A stretch of 64,000 bases of DNA from Narcine bancroftii. Taxonomy: Eukaryota. The DNA is taken from the NCBI RefSeq assembly GCF_036971445.1, contig NC_091473.1, positions 255,068,001 to 255,132,000 on the forward strand, written 5' to 3'. Below, in pieces: positions 5,968 through 49,240 of the stretch. The stretch's first letter is position 1; each line of letters starts with the position of its first letter. A program made the translations under genes and the position numbers. The notes beneath the pieces were generated by a model, which worked only from the letters and a program-made list of their open reading frames with translations, was not told where the DNA came from and did no database searches.

Positions 5968-5992
5968 TTGGAATCATCAGAGTGAATTCGGA

Positions 5993-6111
5993 GCACTGGA
6001 AGGCCCGGCGCACTGGAAGGCCCGGCGCACTGGAAGGCCCAGAGCACTGGAAGGGCCGGAGCACTGGAAGGGCCGGCGCACTGGAAGGGTTGGAGCACTG
6101 GAAGGGTCGGG
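5993..6111. repeat. 17-bp minisatellite, 7 copies
   Basis: Unit gcactggaaggcccggc with variant ends. Confidence 0.92.
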
Positions 6112-6917: not shown

Positions 6918-7521
6918 CAGCCATTTTCAATGGGGGCGATACATCCACCTTGGGGCCATACATCTCCCCTTGGGGCCATACATCCCCCCTGAGGGCCACA
7001 GCACATTGAACAGGGGCCACAGACCAAAGTCAGAAAATAGTTTAATGTTTTTTCTGTCATTGGATGAATTAAATTTTAAATTATTAAATTAAATTTATAT
7101 TTTAAATTTAGACGTACAGCACGGTAACAGGCCATTCCAGCTCACGAGTCCATGCCACCCAATAACACCCCATTAACCTGCGCCCCAGGTACGTTTCTGA
7201 GGGTGGGAGGAAACTGGAGCCACCAGATAAAACCCACGCAGACACGGGGAGAACGTACAAACTCCTTACAGACAGCGCGGGACTCAAGCCCTGGTCCCGA
7301 TCGCTGGTGCTGTGAAGGTGTGGTACGCTCACCGCTACACCGACCCTGCCGCCGTGCTGAAGTAAGGAGGAAACCAACTAAGTGGGTGTATTTGGGTGGA
7401 ATGGGCTCATGCTGATTGTCTACATTTAAAATAAATTAATAAATTGAAAATTGAACCTGTGACGGGGACCCATAAACTTTGAGCAGTCGTAAGGGGGCAA
7501 AAAAATGGGCAAGAATGGCTG
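6918..7521. mobile_element. Non-autonomous hAT MITE containing a nested V-SINE
   Basis: TIR cagccatt.../...aatggctg with perfect 8-bp TSD cttcaaac (6910-6917 / 7522-7529). Confidence 0.85.
7107..7352 (-). mobile_element. V-SINE (HE1-like)
   Basis: Reverse complement of the SINE head, V-core and tail. Confidence 0.82.
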
Positions 7522-8107
7522 CTTCAAACTAATCTAAACTGTAGCTCCCCATATTCTGCAAGCGTTATCTACTAGAGACAGTTAGCATAAAGTACACACA
7601 AGTGCACACAAACAGTATTCATTACAAATCAATAAATAGTTGGATTGAATCTGGCTGAGCCCATGGTAGTGAATGTCCGTGAGCTGGGTGTTAAAGATTT
7701 ACTGATACAGTAATGGATGCGCATATGAAAATACATTCAAATTAAAGTATTTAAAACTCCATATTTCACTCTCATAAATAATAAAAAATTTGCAAGTTAA
7801 AGTATTTCAGTTTTGTATCAAAATATACAGATTACTAGCAGTGAAGAATATGGAGCAAATAATATGAACGAGTGATGGTATTTCTTCTTTCTGAAATACA
7901 CTATTTGTCAAAATTATACTTGCTGATCTAACAAAAAAATTAAAAACACTATTATTTACAATTTCATTCTATTGTAAAATAAAACCGGAATGAAATTCAT
8001 TCAGATGTGATTTACATTTAGTTTTTGGCAGTTTCAGGACTAATTGCACAGGGTGGGACACAGAAAGGATCCTTTATGAGTTACTCTGGCTGATGGATTT
8101 AGAGCAA

Positions 8108-8335
8108 GTAAAAACTCAAAGCTGGGGAAACTCACCAGGCCAAACAGTGTCCTTTATGTAGCAAAGATAAAAATGCAGAACTGATGTTTCGGGCTTGAGC
8201 CCTTCACCGAGGTACGAGCAAAATGTAGCCAGGAGCCCAAACTCAAATCCAAAACGTTGGTTCTGCATCATTATCTTTCCTCTATAAAGGACACTCTTTG
8301 ACCTGCTGGGTTTCTCCAGCTTTGTCTTTTTCTTT
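8108..8335. mobile_element. Palindromic Penelope-like-derived element
   Basis: Arm gctggggaaactcaccaggccaaacagtgtcctttatgtag is inverted against ctataaaggacactctttgacctgctgggtttctccagc. Confidence 0.7.
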
Positions 8336-8524
8336 TTAACTTAGAACATGGGGATCTTCCAGTGAATTTACTGGGGGCAGCAGGTAACATTGGGGAGAGG
8401 CATGAGTCAGAGGGACACTTCCACAAAATTCGACCTGCTGGCTACAGGACTGATCGGCACTGCTTGCCCTGCCATCTCTCATGGCTTCCTGCTTGTTTCC
8501 ATCTTTTATTATTTTGCTCAAAGG

Positions 8525-8850
8525 CAGCCATTTTCAATGGGGTCCTCCATTCTCCCCTCCTTCCTCAGGACAGAGGGATTGATTTAACCTCCTTCCCTCC
8601 CTCCCCAGGACAGGGGAACTGATTTAACTCCCCCCACACCCCTCCCCAGGACAGGAGGACTGATTCCCCTCCCTCCCAGCATTTAAATAAAAACCTTGTT
8701 TTCTTTTCACTCACCTACCACAAATATTTTTTTATGTTTTTGTGTGTATTTGGTAAGAAAATTTGACTGTTTCACAAGGAAGGGGCCCCATTAAACATTG
8801 ACCAGAGTCCGGGGGGGTTTGGTGCTGAAAAGAAAGGTTGCAAATGGCTA
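8525..8850. mobile_element. hAT MITE of the same terminal family as 6918-7521, downstream of the cytokine stop codon
   Basis: cagccattttcaa ... ttgcaaatggcta termini; imperfect flanks ctcaaagg / ctctaaag. Confidence 0.7.
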
Positions 8851-8904
8851 CTCTAAAGGGTGGAGAAAGGTGAGGAGTGGCAGTAGTACTGAAACTGCCA
8901 AGCC

Positions 8905-8916
8905 TAAATATAAATA
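8905..8916 (-). promoter_or_regulatory. AU-rich elements (two ATTTA) in the proximal 3' UTR
   Basis: Plus-strand taaatataaat reads ATTTATATTTA on the mRNA, about 55 nt after the stop; typical of cytokine mRNAs. Confidence 0.5.
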
Positions 8917-8971
8917 CTGTATGGCTTAATCCAGGAAGTGTTGGGACTCCTTCTGCCAGCTCGGCTGCTTC

Positions 8972-9061
8972 TCAATTTCTTCTCATGTTTATGTATTTCC
9001 AAACCCAGTCAACGAAGACGTTGAGCTCTCCCATGGCTTTATACACACCTCTCACCTGTAA
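8972..9061 (-). CDS. il10: IL-10-like exon 5 coding part (LQVRGVYKAMGELNVFVDWVWKYINMRRN*)
   Basis: Acceptor cttccatcag; IL-10 family signature G.YKAMGEL..F; TGA at 8972-8974. Confidence 0.95.
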   Translation of the reverse strand, partial: LQVRGVYKAMGELNVFVDWVWKYINMRRN

Positions 9062-12000
9062 CTGATGGAAGACAGGAAGACAGTGAGGATTGAGGGCTCA
9101 GGAACACATGCAGGGTTGTTGGAAAGTCAGCTCCCTGGTTAATTAAGAACAGAATTGCTCTCTTACCTGCTTGAATATCCTTTGAATTTTTTGGAAATGC
9201 GGACTTGGTTTGCAGCTGCAAAGATCACAATTGAAGAACATGCGCTGAAAGGCAAGATTTCTCACTTTACAAAATGGTTTAATCCTGTGTCATTTTGAAA
9301 TTAGACACATTCTGATACCAATGTAAAAATATTGTTTTGAGTCTAATGTTGTGAAAATATTAACAGGAGTAAGAACGGGTTTGGAAGACATAGTGGAAAA
9401 GATCAAAGTGCAGAGAAAGATCCTGAATTGTATCTTGCGTAAAAACAACATCGTGATTCATTTTAATCCATTCGAATGTTACCATATCACAAGAAAAATG
9501 TGCAAACGTAAAGGTTGCAGATGCTGCCTCCGGCAACAGTCTGCATTCTAGGCATTATATATTCCACCATTCAATTAAAAAAGTGAAATTGTGATGACTA
9601 CTTGACCTTAAGCAGGACTCAAAAGTGCCTCAGTACCGATTCAAGCCTCTGTCGATTACAAGGTGTGACAGAACCCTAACTCTCTGTCTTGATCTGGAGC
9701 TTGCTCAGGCCCTGACTTGGTGTTCACCAGAATAACGCTGCCCGCACCATGATCGCCGAGTGAATGCCCGTGCAGCCATGGCCGCAGATTAAAGGATGCT
9801 GTGCAGCAGTGGGATTGAGCCCGGCAGCTTGGGTGTGGTTATGGTCTGAAAGTGTGGGAAGAATCTCATCAATACAAACCCAGGAAGGGACAAGACCGTT
9901 TATTTTCAAAGTGGGAATCTGGAGAAGTGACCTTTTATTTGGCAAATCACTCAGTGAAGAATAAAGAAGTGAAGTTTTGAACTCAGAGGTTAACTTGTGC
10001 GACTATTTAAATGCCCAGTCTGGGGCTGAACTTATTCTTCAATATTATTGCAATCAGTTGCTCTGCTTTGATGGGATGAATTGGTTGCAAAAACAATTAG
10101 GTCAGCAGTTCTTTTTCTGTTTGCAGCTGGTGCTGTCCCGCTGAAAATTTGCATCCTTCGCTCTTGCTCAGGCTGATGCAGATACGCTGTAGTTGGCTGA
10201 TTATCTGCTTAACGGTTTTTGCAGTAACAATGATGAAATGTTCATTTCATGCCTGCCCTTGTTTCATTTTGAATTCAGCTGCTTATATTAACAGAGCGTG
10301 GTATCAGAGGTGAATGAATCACTTCACTTTTGCATGCAGAGAACCAGAAGCCCTTCTTGTTTCGGCTCAGGACTCCAAGATCTGCTGCCAATTGGACACA
10401 AGGTATGTCGATTCGCTGGCTTCGGAGGAGTTGGCAAACCAGCTTCAACAGGGTGCTGTTGTAAATCTGCACAGTAAAATGATGTTTCTGGAGGTTCACC
10501 TTAACCATCAGAAGCCGACTCCAGAAACGCGAAGCAACACAGAAAGAGGACTAGAACCTGCCAGCTCTCAGGGACCAGCCTCATCACTCCCATATCCCAT
10601 CTCTGCAGAACTAGGAACAGCAGTTCGCTCCCCTGCCCCACAAGATCATGGCTGACCTGGCTGTGGCCTCACCTTCCTCATAACCTTTCATCCCTCTATC
10701 CTTCAAAAGTCGACCTTAAGTACAGATAATGGGGCAGCCTCCACTGCTTCCTTGCGGAGAGAATTTCCTTATGTTCTTGCAACTTACTCTCCACCACACA
10801 AGCCTGTCTGCTGCCCTTTCACATTTTTTTTTGCCACAAGCAACAATATTCAGCAGCTTAAATGAACCTTTTGGTGCATGAGAGAGAATTGTAGCACCGG
10901 GGTAAACCCATGGGGAGAATGCGCAAACTCCACACAGACAGCTGAGGATCAAACCTGAGTCACTGGAGCTGCAAGTCAGTGGTTCAACCTGCTGCATCAC
11001 TATGCCACCCCAAGCAAGCTGTCATGTCAGTGACCATTCTGAGCCTGACCACCCTGGTGGGATGCCGGTGGTCTGGAAAGAGGTCAGCACAATGGGCTAA
11101 GAGCTGTGAAGAATGGTTGAAAGAATTGAACCAACTGAGTCCGGACGGAGGGTTGCAAGAAGGGACTGCTTGCTGTTCCCCAATTAGCACCATCTCCAAG
11201 AAGTTCTGCCAAATGCTCTCAGTGACGTTCTGATGCGTTAGTGGGTCACTGGGCTTCAATAAACCTCATGAGGGGAACATGAAGGAGAAATCACATTGAA
11301 ACCTACCGAAGTAGAGTGGATATAGAGAAGAGGTTTCTAGCAGTGGGAGAGTCTGGTACCTGGGAGAGGACACAGCCTCAGAATAAAGAACAGAGATGAC
11401 AAGAAGGTTCTTCAGCCAGCGGGTGGTGAATCTGTAGAATACTTTGGCACAGATGGCTGTAGAGTCCAAGACATTTGGATACATTTTAAAGTAGAGGGTG
11501 ATAGGTCCTGATTAGTGAGGGTGTCAAAGGTTATGAGGGAAAGCAGGAGAACGGAGTTGAGAAGAAATGTACATCAGCTGCGATTGAATGGCAGAGCAGA
11601 CTTGATGGGCTGAATGGCCTCATTCTGCTCCTACATTTTATGGTCTAAACAGGAAAGAGAGTGACTGGACTATCTTCTGGGACAAACTAGGTAAAATATC
11701 TTGTTACGGTGGGGTTGGTACACCACTGTGCCAGGCTGGGGCAAGTGTTGCAGTCATTTTACCAAAGTCACTCGGTTTACATTCCATGGTGAAACTGAAA
11801 CCCCAGCCCACGTTTGGGTCCGTGGAAACAATTCGAGGGTAAAAGTAACTCAATCACTGCTGTTTCTCATGAGCAGATGTGCATTGTGCATTTGTATTGA
11901 GAACTTTTCACCAACTCACCATCCAAATTCTGTTCAGCAACAAAGGTCACAAAAGTTCAGGATGAGGCTGAATATCCAAAAATAGTGAAGAATATTACTC

Positions 12001-15000
12001 AGTCCTTTGCAAGTATTTTAAACCTTTTGCAGATGAGTAAATAAAGTTTTTTGAAACTAAGTTAATGAATGTCAATCTCAAAATCTATATTTAATCTTCT
12101 TGTGAAGGAATTTCAAACCGTAAACATAAAAATGATTTGCTGGCCCATGTAATTCTCTGAGGTCAATTTTAAGAGCTCAGTTGGACTTCATGTGGACGTT
12201 TAGTGTTTTAGATTGGGACTAATTCACACTTCAATTCCAGTGATATTACTGACTGTGATAGACAAGGCTCTCTCCGCTTCAAGGTTTTGATAGGAAGTGC
12301 CAAGGCGAATATTAGGAACACTTTCACAGAGTTTGAGTGGATGACATTCTCGTTCGGTTAACGCGACCCACATTCTACCAAGTAAACTGACTGGCAGCAT
12401 CATGGTCTGACTTGGAAACTTGATTGGCCGGGCACCAGCCTCCTGTCCACGAAGCATTGGACATCTTAAAGGACCCCCATACCCTGGTCACAACTCACTT
12501 CTCCCTTCGGGCAGAAGGTACAGAAGCCTAAATACCTCTAGGTTTAAGAGCAGCATTTCTCCAACAACTATCAGGCTCTTTAACCTCCCCTTTAACCCAG
12601 ACCATAAACGATTCCGGGATCACCAAAGATCTGTCTGCACGAACACCTTTTTCCTCTTGCACTTACTGCAACTGAGAATACAGTAAAATTTTCCTGATCT
12701 GGGATTCAAACGATCAGTAGCTCAAGCAACCGGCAAAATGAATGGGTGAAAAATCCGAGACGCTCCAAACCGTTACTTCGCCAATCACGCAACAAGCAAC
12801 CTCAAAGAAACGGAAAAGTCACTTCACTGGTGCCGGACGCTGGAGGTTTACTGTATTTATTTATCTATCCTTCAATAATTATCCCTTTTTCTGACTATTA
12901 TCTTGAGTTGCTGGTGCGTCTAGCACACCCCCTGTGGCTCCAGCTAGTGTGCATCCATACCTATACATCTGACAATAAGTTCTCCTCTCAATTGTGAAAT
13001 ACTCACACAATGTTGCACATTCTCGTTCAGCTCATGCAAAGTGTTGGCAATTTTACTGATATTCCTCCTGAGGCTGTGGCCGTGGGTCTTCGCTGCTGGG
13101 ATGACATCTATGAGGTAAAAATTCAGCATTTCCTTCAGGAACTGGCAACTGTGGATGTCCTAAACATGTACAAGAGGTCACTGTTAGGTCTTGAAAAAGT
13201 CATTACGCAGAAACAGAAAATTTGGGTCCCAGATAAGTTCCAAAGTCTGGGTCCTGGTTTAGATAAAATGCACTTTGAAGATCCTCTGTTTTGAAAACCG
13301 TAACCCAAAATTGAAGCAGGGAACTATTTTACAATATTACTGTTTAATTTTCTATTTTTAAACTTAAAACTCATTTTTTTTACTTCTTCCATCAGCGTAT
13401 GCCCGACTAAAGCAACTCCAATGCAGATGATGCTCAAAGTTCAGTTTAATTTACAAGGCCAACATTTGATTATGTCAGTGATCTGAAGCTTGGCTCCTTG
13501 GGTGATGGAGTAGGAGTGTCTTCTCCCACAGGCAGGCCCAACCAGTGAGTGGTGAGTCTTGGTATGTAGTCTTCCCTGCCGATCCCCCTACACCATCCCT
13601 TACTGTCACAGACCCTGCTACTATTAATATAAAGTCCTGCTGAATGAAATAACAACACCATTCCCACACAGAACAAGACCTTTGTCGCCAGGTCTAAATC
13701 CTGAAACTCCTTCCTAATCTCAGTCTGGGAGCCCTTCACCAGTTCACTGCAATCTTTACAAACTGCAGGAAGAGCTCAGCTGGCTGGCAGCATCTGTGGA
13801 GGAAAATGATGCAGGTCGAGAGCCTACATCAGAACTCGAGGGCAACCAATAGATGTTGACTGCCTATTGCTAGATGACTTGTGAGCTCCTGTGTGGGCCA
13901 CAAATGTTGACATGTTCAGTGATGCACAGATCCCTAATAAAAGGGGTTTCCAAAGTTGTTCCTGATATTTTCCCTTCGTGAATCATTGCTTCTTCATTTC
14001 AAGTGTGGGCAGGTCTTCGTTGTCTTCAGTCTAATCACTGGCGCATTGGCATAACCCTTTGGCTGAAGTTCTAATCAGTTAAATCAAACCTACACTGACA
14101 ATTAACACCCAACGTGAAAATTAGTCTGCTCACTCCCACTTTCTACCTGGTGAAGTTTGAGTTGTTAAGAGAAAAGGGCACGCAAAATCATCGAGGACCC
14201 CTTCCACCCTGCACACAGAATCTTTCAATTGCTCCTGTCGGGGAAGAGATCCAGGAGGATCAGAGCCAGCCCCACCAGGCTGAGGAACAAATTCTTCCCA
14301 CGGGCTCATATTAACTATCCGAGACCGTCATATTTATTGGTTTATTTATTTATATGTATGGGTGTGGATCTGCATGTTTTGCACCGAGAACCAGAGAACA
14401 TGGTTTTGTCAGGTTGGACTTGTACGATCTGATGACAATAAACTTGACGGTGCTTGAATCAGTCCACTATTCTCATCTCCTGCCCGTGAACTTTCTTGAG
14501 CTTCTGTTTATTTTTGGGGAACTACAAAGCAATTTGTGACTCAGCACCAGACACACAGATCAAAGCAGTGAAACCAACCACCGGAAGGGAACAATTTGTT
14601 GGCAAACCCTCACCGAGAGTGACACCCCATCACTCCTGTTCTCCAGGGCACAGGCACCCGGCTACATTCCCACGACACTCCACCACAGCACCCTCCCAGG
14701 GGCTCAGCACGTCCACCTTTAACCATGCAAGTGAAGCTTCCCTCTCACCGTGAATCCTGGCAGGTCTCGCGGTTTCAGCAGAATTGTCTTGAAATTGCCA
14801 TCTTTTTCTTGCTGCAGTAAAGAAGCACAAATTCAGCACTTGGGCGCGGATGAATTATTCCTCTGCCACCTTCCACCCTTCACTTGACTGGTACAGCTTT
14901 ACTCCCCACACAACAATGAACACAAACACCACGAACGGAGTCAAACATTGTCTGATGAATTCATTTAAACTCCCATTTAAAATCTGCGCTCTCTAAGATG

Positions 15001-15500
15001 ATGCCATCTTCAATAAAGCAGCAATCCCCGGTTATCATCCTCTCTTGGTCAACATTGCGAAGTAGCATTGAACAATTCTATATATCTTTTCTCTGCATCA
15101 CTTTTAAAACATGCATTGTTTAAAACAGTTGATATCAAGCTCAATTAACATGTACCCCATTACTACGATATTTGGATCAGCTTCAGATTTTGTTTGTGCC
15201 TTTGATGTCTTCAAGTATTACTTGGAACCTGCTTGCATGAAGAGCTGTAACAAATGCAATCCCAGCCTGACTGACTTTCCAACACAGCAGTAACTTGCAA
15301 AGAGTGCTCTGTTCTCACTGCATCTAAAACACACACTTCCATTTGATACTTACAAAGTGAACCCTGATTTTGTGATATGAAGTCCTGAGTTCTTCGATGT
15401 GAGCAGGGAAGATGGCGTAGTTGAAGCAGAGCTGAGAGGAGTGACAGTAGTGACACTGAATGCTAATCAGTGTACACAATACCAGAGTGACGCTCTTCAT
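8972..15500 (-). CDS. il10: Interleukin-10 family cytokine (IL-10-like), 5 coding exons, 176 aa
   Basis: Manual splice assembly of exons 147+63+153+78+90 nt with all introns GT-AG and phase 0, the IL-10-family architecture. Shows a signal peptide, CQFLKEMLNFYL..V.P.A helix C and GVYKAMGEL helix F. C25/C75/C121/C127 align with the two IL-10 disulfides. Orthology to IL10 versus an IL-19/20-type paralog needs a phylogeny. Confidence 0.92.
9167..9244 (-). CDS. il10: IL-10-like exon 4 (RMFFNCDLCSCKPSPHFQKIQRIFKQ)
   Basis: 78 nt, acceptor cctttcag, donor gtaaga; Cys six residues after the exon-3 Cys as in IL-10 HRFLPC. Confidence 0.92.
10880..11010 (-). mobile_element. Old V-SINE fragment
   Basis: ggggagaatgcgcaaactccacacagac is the reverse V-core. 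Confidence 0.65.
11290..11648 (+). mobile_element. CR1 3' end (intron 3)
   Basis: ttcttcagccagcgggtggtgaatctg...gggctgaatggcct...atggtcta. Confidence 0.8.
12370..12680 (+). mobile_element. Rex1-like 3' fragment (intron 3)
   Basis: LLPSGRRYRSLNTSRFKSS.SP..IRL. Confidence 0.7.
13007..13159 (-). CDS. il10: IL-10-like exon 3 (DIHSCQFLKEMLNFYLIDVIPAA...NVQHC)
   Basis: 153 nt, the same length as human IL10 exon 3; acceptor tgtttag, donor gtgagt; ends in the conserved Cys. Confidence 0.95.
14165..14460 (+). mobile_element. Rex1-like 3' end (intron 2)
   Basis: LLSGKRSRRIRASPTRLRNKFFP; tail gacaataaacttgac. Confidence 0.75.
14749..14811 (-). CDS. il10: IL-10-like exon 2 (QEKDGNFKTILLKPRDLPGFT)
   Basis: 63 nt, acceptor tttactgcag, donor gtgaga; resembles QMKDQLDNLLLK (IL-10) and QAKDGNIDIRIL (IL-20). 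Confidence 0.9.
15354..15500 (-). CDS. il10: IL-10-like exon 1 (MKSVTLVLC...ELRTSYHKIRVHF)
   Basis: gaaaccATG in Kozak context, hydrophobic signal peptide, helix A resembling LRDLRDAFSRVKTFF, donor gtaagt. Confidence 0.92.
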
Positions 15501-16728: not shown

Positions 16729-16893
16729 ATCATTCTGAAGCAATTAATTCTTTGAAGCTTAAATATTGTGGTTACGGACCACAATTTCTGCCTCACACAC
16801 TTTTGACTACAGTTTGATACCGTTAAGTGTGTGTTAACGTGGGTCAAAATTTGTCCTGTGTCATCAGTGCCCAGAGGGCCATTATACTGTTCT

Positions 16894-17753
16894 TACACAT
16901 CTCCATCGGGCACACAAAACTCAAAACGGTCAACCAGTTTACCTATCTCGGCTGCACCATTTCATCAGATGCAAGGATCGACAATGAGATAGACAACAGA
17001 CTCGCCAAGGCAAATAGCGCCTTTGGAAGACTACACAAAAGAGTCTGGAAAAACAACCAACTGAAAAACCTCACAAAGATAAGCGTATACAGAGCCGTTG
17101 TCATACCCACACTCCTGTTCGGCTCCGAATCATGGGTCCTCTACCGGCACCACCTACGGCTCCTAGAACGCTTCCACCAGCGTTGTCTCCGCTCCATCCT
17201 CAACATCCATTGGAGCGCTCACACCCCTAACGTCGAGGTACTCGAGATGGCAGAGGTCGACAGCATCGAGTCCACGCTGCTGAAGATCCAGCTGCGCTGG
17301 ATGGGTCACGTCTCCAGAATGGAGGACCATCGCCTTCCCAAGATCGTATTATATGGCGAGCTCTCCACTGGCCACCGTGACAGAGGTGCACCAAAGAAAA
17401 GGTACAAGGACTGCCTAAAGAAATCTCTTGGTGCCTGCCACATTGACCACCGCCAGTGGGCTGATAACGCCTCAAACCGTGCATCTTGGCGCCTCACAGT
17501 TTGGCGGGCAGCAGCCTCCTTTGAAGAAGACCGCAGAGCCCACCTCACTGACAAAAGGCAAAGGAGGAAAAACCCAACACCCAACCCCAACCAACCAATT
17601 TTCCCTTGCAACCGCTGCAATCGTGTCTGCCTGTCCCGCATCGGACTGGTCAGCCACAAACGAGCCTGCAGCTGACGTGGACTTTTTACCCCCTCCATAA
17701 ATCTTCGTCCGCGAAGCCAAGCCAAAGAAGAAAGAGAAAAAAAAAAAAAAAAA
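16894..17753 (+). mobile_element. RTE-BovB-like LINE, 5'-truncated, ORF C-terminus intact, A-rich tail
   Basis: FTYLGCTISSDARIDNEIDNRLAKANSAFGRL...QLRWMGHVSRMEDHRLPK...C.RC.RVCLSRIGL.SH. Confidence 0.93.
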
Positions 17754-19249: not shown

Positions 19250-19790
19250 GTTCCAGCGCCAGCGATCCAGGTTCGAATCCCGTGCTGTCTGTAAGGAGTT
19301 TGTACGCTCTCCCTGTGTCTGCATGGGTTTCCTCCGGGTGCTCCAGTTTCCTCCTACCCTCCAAAATGTACTGGGGTTGGTAGGTTAATGGGGTGTAATT
19401 GGGCAACACAGGCTTGTGGGCCAAAATCTCTTGGTGCCTGCCACATTGACCACCGCCAGTGGGCTGATATCGCCTCAAACCGTGCATCTTGGCGCCTCAC
19501 AGTTCGGCGGGCAGCAACCTCCTTTGAAGAATACCGCAGAGCCCACCTCACTGACAAAAGGCAAAGGAGGAAAAACCCAACACCCAACCCCAACCCACCA
19601 ATTTTCCCCTGCAACCGCTGCAACCGTGTCTGCCTGTCCCGCATCGGACTTGTCAGCCACAAACGAGCCTGCAGCTGACGTGGACATTTACCCCTTCCAT
19701 AAATCTTCGTCCGCGAAGCCAAGCCAAAGAATTGGGCAACACAGGCTTGTGGGCCAAAATGGCCTGTTACCCTGCTGTTTCTCCACTTTT
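19250..19790 (+). mobile_element. V-SINE interrupted by an RTE 3' end (19428-19729)
   Basis: RTE flanked by the 31-bp direct repeat aattgggcaacacaggcttgtgggccaaaat (19397-19427 / 19730-19760). Confidence 0.9.
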
Positions 19791-20044
19791 GAAATTTAAA
19801 ATGTAAAAATGTAAATTTTAAATGTAAATTGAAAGCATTTTAACCATGCAAAACAGCACTCCATTTTATGCAAGCTTGCTCTGTGCCCCTGGAATTTCTG
19901 CACCCCTCTCACCTTCCAGGATTTTAGTAATTCATTCACTCTTGCCTCATGCTCAGCCCAGTGGCTGCCACTCCTCCAATAAAATGCTGATTCGAAACAG
20001 CCAAGAGCTTGTTCAGCATCATTACAGGAAGTATGTTTAAACTT

Positions 20045-22169: not shown

Positions 22170-23190
22170 AGAGAAACTTGTCCGTGAACTACTCTTTGCA
22201 GATGATGCCGCTTTAGTTGCCCATTCAGAGCCAGCTCTTCAGCGCTTGACGTCCTGCTTTGCGGAAACTGCCAAAATGTTTGGCCTGGAAGTCAGCCTGA
22301 AGAAAACTGAGGTCCTCCATCAGCCAGCTCCCCACCATGATTACCAGCCCCCCCACATCTCCATCGGGCACACAAAATTCAAAACGGTCAACCAGTTTAC
22401 CTATCTCGGCTGCACCATTTCATCAGATGCAAGGATCGACAATGAGATAGACAACAGACTCGCCAAGGCAAATAGCGCCTTTGGAAGACTACACAAAAGA
22501 GTCTGGAAAAACAACCAACTGAAAAACCTCACAAAGATAAGCGTATACAGAGCCGTTGTCATACCCACACTCCTGTTCGGCTCCGAATCATGGGTCCTCT
22601 ACCGGCACCACCTACGACTCCTAGAACGCTTCCACCAGCGTTGTCTCCGCTCCATCCTCAACATCCATTGGAGCGCTCACATCCCTAGCGTCGAAGTACT
22701 CGAGATGGCAGAGGTCGACAGCATCGAGTCCACGCTGCTGAAGATCCAGCTGCGCTGGATGGGTCACGTCTCCAGAATGGAGGACCATCGCCTTCCCAAG
22801 ATCGTATTATATGGCGAGCTCTCCACTGGCCACCGTGACAGAGGTGCACCAAAGAAAAGGTACAAGGACTGCCTAAAGAAATCTCTTGGTGCCTGCCACA
22901 TTGACCACCGCCAGTGGGCTGATAACGCCTCAAACCGTGCATCTTGGCGCCTCACAGTTTGGCGGGCAGCAGCCTCCTTTGAAGAAGACCGCAGAGCCCA
23001 CCTCTCTGACAAAAGGCAAAGGAGGAAAAACCCAACACCCAACCCCAACCAACCAATTTTCCCTTGCAACCGCTGCAATCGTGTCTGCCTGTCCCGCATC
23101 GGACTGGTCAGCCACAAACGAGCCTGCAGCTGACGTGGACTTTTTACCCCCTCCATAAATCTTCGTCCGCGAAGCCAAGCCAAAGAAAGA
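22170..23190 (+). mobile_element. RTE-BovB-like LINE, 5'-truncated, inside the hAT element
   Basis: ELLFADDAAL RT motif followed by an open 295-aa ORF; nearly identical to 16894-17735. Confidence 0.93.
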
Positions 23191-48308: not shown

Positions 48309-48748
48309 TACATTCCAGTTGAGAATTCACGAAGCGTAGCTAAAAGAAAAGTGACGATTGTGAGAGATGAGTAAAACTAATATGAAAATATGTGTAATGA
48401 ATAAAGCCAGTATGAAAGGATAGGTAGATAATAGAATGTAGGACGTAAAGTTAGTCTGAATAAGATAAGGGTCTTCTAGCCTTTGACAGAATAGCAAGTT
48501 CTACATATAAGAGTTAGTAAGACCTGAGGGTTGGGAAGGTGTGAATAAGGACACAGACAGGATACCCCCTGGTCCTCCAAGTTCACAGAAACAGCACGTA
48601 GGCAGACAGGATTGCCTAATGCCAAACTCATCCAGGAGGCAGAAGAATGTAAGAGGGAGGGTACTTCTATACTGAAATAAACTGTATAAAAGTTGGGTGA
48701 GCCCCAGTGTATGTGTATTCCCAGGGTAAGGGGGAAGCACCCAACTTT

Positions 48749-48922
48749 GCAAAGGAGGAAAAACCCAACACCCAACCCCAACCAACCAATTTTCCCTTGC
48801 AACCGCTGCAATCGTGTCTGCCTGTCCCGCATCGGACTTGTCAGCTACAAACGAGCCTGCAGCTGACGTGGACTTTTTACCCCCTCCATAAATCTTCGTC
48901 CGCGAAGCCAAGCCAAAGAAAA
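48749..48922 (+). mobile_element. RTE-BovB-like 3' end inserted in the ERV 3' LTR
   Basis: Near-identical to 17560-17730. Confidence 0.9.
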
Positions 48923-48993
48923 ATAATAAATGTTCTTTGTTCTCAGTTTTTGTCTGGAGCAATTTCTGTGAAGGTACTGCTGTTTCTCACACT

Positions 48994-49240
48994 GTGGTTG
49001 AAGTAAAATGCTGGAGAAACTCAGCAGCTCAGACTGTGGCAGGCTCCATAACCAATGTTTCGGGCCCCTTCATCAAGATATGAACAAAATGTGGGCAGGC
49101 ATCTGAGGTCCAAGTACCTGCTGACATTTTGCTCACACCTTAACGAAGGGTTCAAGCCCGAAACGTCAGTTCTGTACCTTTACCTTTGCTCCATAAAGGG
49201 CGTTGTTTGACCTGCTGAGTTTCTCCAGCTTTGAGTCTTT
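48994..49240. mobile_element. Palindromic Penelope-like element; its first bases (47331-47351) are separated by the ERV
   Basis: Rejoined gtctgtagacact|gtggttgaagtaaaa matches the copies at 27570 and 32737. Confidence 0.72.

Follow-up and report, generated by a model that had tools for sequence, protein, structure and literature searches.

A four-cysteine D–E hinge motif conserved in the interleukin-10 of cartilaginous fishes

Interleukin-10 (IL-10), an anti-inflammatory signal, is a textbook domain-swapped cytokine whose value as a drug is held back by the instability of its dimer. Human IL-10 is described as having Cys12–Cys108 and Cys62–Cys114 bonds, no interchain bond, and swapped helices E and F (PMC9834763, PMC3462211), and its dimer as unstable to dilution, acid, and heat (PMC7431522, PMC9834763). 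Insertion of six residues between helices D and E yields a stable but weaker monomer (PMC3462211, PMC9834763); one assay required roughly ten times as much of it, and in another it had no activity (PMC3462211). IL-19, IL-20, and IL-24 are monomers (PMC3403192). A 64,000-nucleotide stretch of the ray Narcine bancroftii (hereafter the window) carries an IL-10 gene in which, according to an earlier note on this DNA, exon 4 is enlarged and adds two cysteines to the D–E hinge. The note proposed a new disulfide pattern, a covalent dimer, or a monomeric fold as the outcome. Is this hinge genuine, how widely is it shared, and which of these states would it favor?

The gene, its transcripts, and its orthology

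Exon 4 occupies minus-strand positions 9244-9167 of the window as a 78-nt, phase-0 exon with a 26-residue open frame, and reads RMFFNCDLCSCKPSPHFQKIQRIFKQ; its AG acceptor is rich in pyrimidines and its donor is GTAAGA. Five exons, joined across GT-AG borders with all four introns in phase 0, encode a 176-aa protein with cysteines at positions 9, 16, 19, 25, 75, 121, 127, 130, and 132. The last four of these make up the hinge pattern C-x5-C-x2-C-x-C. Translation and RNA joints bear out the coordinates, exon length, and cysteine numbering that had been given for this exon, and the assembled protein is identical to database protein P0003, an electric ray protein labeled interleukin-10-like. The features of the gene, in window positions, are as follows.

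15354..15500, minus strand: exon 1, coding part, 147 nt; putative signal peptide (C9, C16, C19), C25, and helix A
15428-15426, minus strand: C25 codon of exon 1, from translation
14749..14811, minus strand: exon 2, 63 nt, A–B loop, from translation and RNA joints
13007..13159, minus strand: exon 3, 153 nt, helices C and D, from translation and RNA joints
13147-13145, minus strand: C75 in exon 3, a single cysteine followed by Gln, not Cys
13009-13007, minus strand: C121 in exon 3, from translation
9167..9244, minus strand: exon 4, 78 nt, 26 aa, D–E hinge and helix E, from translation and RNA joints
9229-9227, 9220-9218, and 9214-9212, minus strand: exon 4 codons of C127, C130, and C132, respectively
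8972..9061, minus strand: exon 5, coding part and stop, 90 nt, helix F, which contains the family motif KAMGE, from RNA joints
8510..8971, minus strand: proximal 3′ UTR, with ATTTA at 8915, 8909, and 8688 and an AATAAA starting at 8510

Contigs from runs X1 and X2 join 9061 to 9167 and 9244 to 13007 with no mismatch and contain all four exon joints, including the exon 1/exon 2 joint 14811/15354. Run X3 contains the 9244/13007 joint only, and in run X4 exon 4 lies outside the coverage. These four runs come from one study, and their RNA nature is presumed, though the joints correspond to exact introns. We also considered a splice variant that would remove the hinge cysteines, an escape that the earlier note had left itself. 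There is no other in-frame AG within 86 bases upstream of the acceptor, and inside exon 4 an in-frame AG is absent up to the final codon and an in-frame GT is absent throughout; thus, no simple alternative splice deletes the exon 4 cysteines. No such joint occurs in the contigs of the four runs, which, being assembled, drop rare splice variants, and we rejected this candidate.

Other features of the transcript and protein can be recorded here. Contigs extend below the AATAAA at 8510 (X1: 7794-8153 and 8156-8571), a hint of a longer 3′ UTR, and further ATTTA motifs lie below 7800 (window 7500-8971, minus strand). N103 (13063-13055, minus strand) is the single N-x-S glycosylation site, in helix D; it is found in some sharks as well, not in all. 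The leader before C25 (15500-15426, minus strand) is rich in cysteine, and the cleavage point decides whether the mature chain keeps one of these residues.

The gene is an IL-10 ortholog. The protein scores 94.6 bits against the Pfam IL10 family (PF00726; cut-off 24.2), and in sequence matches to the PDB, IL-10 entries (E 5e-22) stand above those of IL-20 (E 1.5e-13), IL-24, and IL-19. In a maximum-likelihood tree of 58 near-complete proteins, hand-picked from 157 and rooted at the midpoint without IL-22 or IFN-gamma rows, 15 cartilaginous-fish IL-10s form one clade (100/99) that is sister to 12 bony-vertebrate IL-10s at 97/91, and the IL-19/20/24 clade (100/99) leaves out ray IL-10. The four canonical cysteines are kept, C75, C121, and C127 in all 21 cartilaginous-fish species aligned and C25 in 20 of them. 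Among 13 genome matches no second IL-10 copy was found: five are the gene's own exons and eight have E values of at least 0.24, the best candidates having been scored. A PF00726 profile search of the genome gave no match anywhere, controls included, a result that carries no weight for a spliced gene.

Within the 464 kb examined around it, the IL-10 gene is flanked on one side by a MAPKAPK2-like gene and on the other by an IL-19/20-like gene distinct from it.

C11, about 255,006,000-255,029,300, plus strand: MAPKAPK2-like kinase exons, ending about 48 kb from the IL10 3′ end, tail to tail
C11:255,153,374-255,156,504, plus strand: IL-19/20-like gene, five exons, 175 aa, about 70 kb upstream of IL10, head to head

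The kinase exons we take to be MAPKAPK2-like from their motifs, which do not tell MAPKAPK2 from MAPKAPK3. Linkage to MAPKAPK2 and IL-19/20 is expected for an IL-10 locus (PMC4338397). The exons of the IL-19/20-like gene measure 153, 63, 153, 75, and 84 nt, with an intron 4 donor that reads GTTT. After the leader, its protein has cysteines at 31, 77, 78, 123, 129, and 131, which fits the six-cysteine IL-19/20 pattern described in PMC4338397. The contrast with IL-19/20 that had been drawn from the IL-10 sequence holds at the locus itself: the neighbor has the CC (77/78) and C123/C129/C131, whereas the position following C75 in IL-10, at the start of helix C, is cysteine in 0 of 21 cartilaginous-fish species. 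The IL-19/20 hinge, C-x5-C-x-C, is likewise absent from all 26 records that bear the ray motif. As a side observation, IL-19/20/24 are traced only as far back as gar in PMC12652433; NCBI names such genes in two sharks, and in the tree the ray IL-19/20-like protein pairs with a Heptranchias protein at 100/100.

Distribution and register of the hinge cysteines

The earlier note had asked for the motif to be sought in other chondrichthyans. In an alignment with one sequence for each of 21 cartilaginous-fish species (rays, skates, sharks, and the elephant shark), C127, C130, and C132 are each present in 21 of 21, and positions 129, 131, and 133 vary among six, four, and four residues, respectively. 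Invariant cysteines amid variable residues indicate that the motif is not due to chance. F125 is also invariant, and proline occurs at 134 in 12 of the 21 sequences and at 136 in 10. All 26 cartilaginous-fish records, which come from 21 species and include a chimaera, carry the full pattern. Across 270 family proteins these are its only occurrences, all within cartilaginous-fish IL-10 clusters, with none among the other 244, many of which are partial or belong to other family members. Nor does it occur among the best 120 of 184 matches to a bony-vertebrate IL-10 profile, nearly all ray-finned fish plus lungfish. In these best 120, the hinge cysteine pair lies 29/23 residues before the KA motif in 115 and 30/24 in four, and one protein has a further cysteine in helix D. 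Two records deserve mention on their own account: P0009 and P0149 are differing IL-10-like records of one stingray species, both with the motif and possibly from a local duplication, and P0016, a sawfish isoform X2, lacks 21 exon 2 residues and keeps the motif.

The extra hinge cysteines are thus not peculiar to this ray: they mark a variant form of an already known cytokine that runs through the whole lineage. The split between chimaeras and elasmobranchs dates to about 420 million years ago (PMC6238376), and the presence of the motif in both makes the trait at least that old. The motif-bearing sequences are already public in existing annotations. The searched literature on cartilaginous-fish IL-10, which takes in few subscription journals, gave no description of the motif; it goes unmentioned in the available parts of PMC5332411, PMC6238376, PMC4929537, PMC6640115, and bioRxiv 10.64898/2026.05.30.728932. 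The available part of PMC12652433, in which elephant shark IL-10 is the most distant IL-10 homolog on record, gives fish IL-10 four conserved cysteines and does not mention the hinge motif. It is quite possible that a fish cytokine cloning paper noticed the motif earlier.

With mammalian IL-10 (2ILK, 1ILK, 4X51; PF00726), the ray gene shares the five exons and four introns, all in phase 0, together with the four canonical cysteines, the helix F motif, and the MAPKAPK2-IL10-IL19/20 order, with about 28-30% identity in structure alignments. It differs by four residues and two cysteines more in the D–E hinge and, by alignment, one codon more in exon 2. Human IL10 exon 4 is 66 nt long, in agreement with the four-residue gap seen when the ray hinge is aligned to human, mouse, and viral IL-10. 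The length difference that the earlier note had reported is therefore sound; calling it an enlargement presupposes growth from a shorter hinge, and the long form could instead be the ancestral one.

To compare hinges, we took the cysteine that lies six residues beyond the helix D cysteine and counted from it to the aromatic residue of helix E. This distance is 13-14 in seven bony IL-10s, 17 in five IL-19/20 proteins, and 18 in four cartilaginous-fish IL-10s; for the engineered human monomer it is 20. The cartilaginous-fish hinge is accordingly 4-5 residues longer than that of bony-vertebrate IL-10, one longer than that of IL-19/20, and two shorter than that of the engineered monomer; the hinge of ray-finned fish IL-10, which lacks the motif in the best 120 of 184 matches, is the shortest in the family. 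From the helix D cysteine to the KA motif there are 34 residues both in cartilaginous-fish IL-10 and in IL-19/20. In IL-26 the same distance is mixed, at 33 in tarpon and gar and 30 in caecilian.

Which cysteines count as extra depends on the register chosen. C130 lies 15 residues before the helix E aromatic, as does the last hinge cysteine of IL-19/20. That cysteine reportedly pairs with the second cysteine of the CC in IL-19, a partner that ray IL-10, with its single C75, does not have. C132 lies 13 residues before the aromatic, matching the fourth cysteine of teleost IL-10. In an AlphaFold2 model helix E spans residues 136-148; in the sequence alignment, S135 falls on the serine with which helix E of human IL-10 begins. 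The canonical fourth cysteine is thus ambiguous and may be C127, counting from helix D, or C132, counting from helix E. The earlier note, which named C130 and C132 as the additional pair, missed this fit of C132 to the canonical fourth position. It also missed that the trait is present in all cartilaginous fish sampled and in public annotations, and that the hinge is possibly ancestral. In the strongest form of this idea, the long hinge would be the ancestral IL-10/19/20 state, kept in cartilaginous-fish IL-10 as a natural disulfide-locked monomer, and bony vertebrates would have invented the swapped dimer when their exon 4 lost four codons and two cysteines. We find this scenario doubtful.

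Disulfide pairing and oligomeric state

Counting from C25 onward, exactly six cysteines are present in 20 of the 21 species, the remaining record having a divergent N terminus without C25. Upstream of C25 their place and number vary (three to six in records with an intact N terminus), and on these grounds the N-terminal C16 and C19 were ruled out as disulfide partners. An extra disulfide of some kind would almost certainly form in cartilaginous-fish IL-10, since six cysteines stand from C25 onward with no conserved partner elsewhere and position 76, the site of the IL-19/20 CC partner, is never cysteine. With six fixed cysteines and variable upstream ones, the partners of the extra pair would come from C75, C127, C130, and C132, or from the same residues of a second chain. 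The new disulfide suggested by the earlier note is therefore likely; modeling gave no choice among that note's three outcomes.

The single-chain AlphaFold2 prediction, run with 11 cartilaginous-fish sequences, returned one confident model of five (pLDDT 83.1; the others 37-41). This model is closed, with an rmsd of 2.6 Å to the engineered monomer 1LK3 (VIA-align Z 19.3) and about 18 Å to swapped chains. A short-hinge control, lungfish IL-10, is also closed, at 2.2 Å from 1LK3 and about 18 Å from swapped chains. Because the control folds like ray IL-10, single-chain modeling says nothing about oligomeric state, and we rejected the closed model as evidence for a monomer. A two-copy prediction of residues 22-176, made without a supplied alignment or controls, scored 0.02 with a mark of 0.32 and is no evidence either way. 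The solved IL-10 structures matched are mammalian, engineered, or viral, as far as they are named, so a dimeric bony-fish baseline is an assumption.

Our tentative preference, held at somewhat less than even confidence and resting on sequence comparison, is that ray IL-10 is a closed monomer with a third, intrachain disulfide and with helices E and F folded into their own chain. In this proposal C25–C121 and C75–C127 would form as in human IL-10, a pairing suggested by the F-F-x-C after C121, which keeps the IL-10 spacing. The remaining thiols of the secreted protein would then be oxidized, with pairing among C75, C127, C130, and C132. Between C127 and helix E the ray chain has four residues more than dimeric mammalian IL-10 and one more than monomeric IL-19/20, so fold-back of helices E and F would be sterically allowed and, at low cytokine concentrations, favored. 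Each chain would signal through one IL-10R1 and one IL-10R2; IL-10 receptor homologs are reported in elephant shark (PMC12652433). The extra bond might be an adaptation to urea-rich blood, which is a guess; for this idea, coelacanth IL-10 was not among the named database matches, and a freshwater stingray was not found.

By analogy, two comparisons count in favor of a monomer. The insert of the engineered human monomer (1LK3, 8SVE; P0022) lies at the site of the ray insert, just after the fourth canonical cysteine, although it consists of six flexible Gly/Ser residues whereas the ray insert has four residues, two of them cysteines, and is natural and conserved. IL-19, IL-20, and IL-24 are monomeric, and IL-19 (1N1F), IL-20 (4DOH), and the ray's IL-19/20-like neighbor share with ray IL-10 six cysteines, a long hinge, and one cysteine at distance 15. 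They differ in having the CC in exon 3, C-x5-C-x-C, and a 75-nt exon 4, in place of a single C75, C-x5-C-x2-C-x-C, and 78 nt. Several considerations would count against a monomer. Disulfide rings within C-x-C are strained and rare, and with C75–C127 kept the intrachain solution would need such a ring at C130-x-C132. Hinge prolines often favor swapping, which makes the common prolines at 134 and 136 a point against. Tethering of C132, placed like the teleost cysteine, could restore a short, swap-forcing link, and the weak activity of monomeric human IL-10 would argue for a dimer if shark receptors act like human ones.

The trait might also be thought an artefact, that is, a mis-called exon, a species quirk, or a paralog of IL-19/20 type. 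The hinge does match IL-19/20 in length, and some sources call the gene merely interleukin-10-like; observed splice joints, conservation in 21 of 21 species, a true IL-19/20-like gene about 70 kb away, the placement of the ray protein with IL-10 in the tree, and the lack of a second copy among the genome matches refute this reading and leave it practically no chance. The earlier note's covalent dimer is harder to dismiss, though on balance we think it rather unlikely. It would keep C25–C121, C75–C127, and the domain swap, with the hinges stapled, most simply by C130–C132′ and C132–C130′ across the two-fold axis. Precedents for interchain disulfides exist in cytomegalovirus IL-10 and IL-5; the word "disulfide" was not found in the available part of a review of viral IL-10 (PMC7296156). 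The strained C-x-C ring would be avoided, and a symmetric, antiparallel C-x-C would suit two cross-strand disulfides. A staple would be useful given the fragile human dimer (PMC7431522, PMC9834763) and the 350 mM urea of shark blood (PMC4622739), and it would preserve the dimer that human IL-10 requires for full activity (PMC3462211). However, a hinge long enough for fold-back would be expected to compete with interchain pairing during folding.

Somewhat improbable, too, is a non-covalent swapped dimer with reshuffled intrachain bonds, either C75–C130 with C127–C132 or C75–C132 with C127–C130, in which the insert would become a small loop and the effective hinge would be short. The position of C132, 23 residues before KA and 13 before the helix E aromatic like the teleost fourth cysteine, agrees with this arrangement, as do the start of helix E at 136 in the model and the alignment of S135 with the human helix E serine; of the three pairings possible, C127–C132 would also close its ring with the least strain. 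Yet C121–C127 keeps the exact IL-10 spacing together with the invariant F125, favoring C127 as the partner of C75. We consider it very unlikely that the extra cysteines stay reduced, coordinate a metal, or switch the protein between monomer and dimer in response to redox state. Their strict invariance would fit a functional site, and C-x2-C-x-C resembles metal-binding and redox motifs, but the protein is by orthology a secreted cytokine with an even cysteine count, and metal binding has no support in any analysis. For comparison, ray-finned fish IL-10 also has two extra cysteines, but these are N-terminal and their pairing is described as unresolved (PMC4338397).

Significance and other features of the window

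The earliest-branching jawed vertebrates carry a natural, conserved insert where an engineered insert monomerizes human IL-10. If the closed monomer is correct, dimerization would not be a requirement for a potent IL-10, and the finding would be relevant to the timing of the domain swap's origin. A covalent dimer would instead offer a natural design for a stabilized IL-10, and a non-covalent one would mean that the oligomeric state is set by how disulfides tether the hinge and not by how long the loop is. The scope is modest: the sequences are public, the trait consists of two cysteines in a known gene, and the mechanism is proposed from sequence.

The window also contains repeats. Near-identical open frames at 16827-17672 and 22171-23130, both on the plus strand, resemble the end of a LINE reverse transcriptase, and pieces of this repeat recur near 19300-19800 and 48500-49000. 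At about 5990-6110 there is a short tandem array of roughly seven units that have CACTGGAAGG in common.
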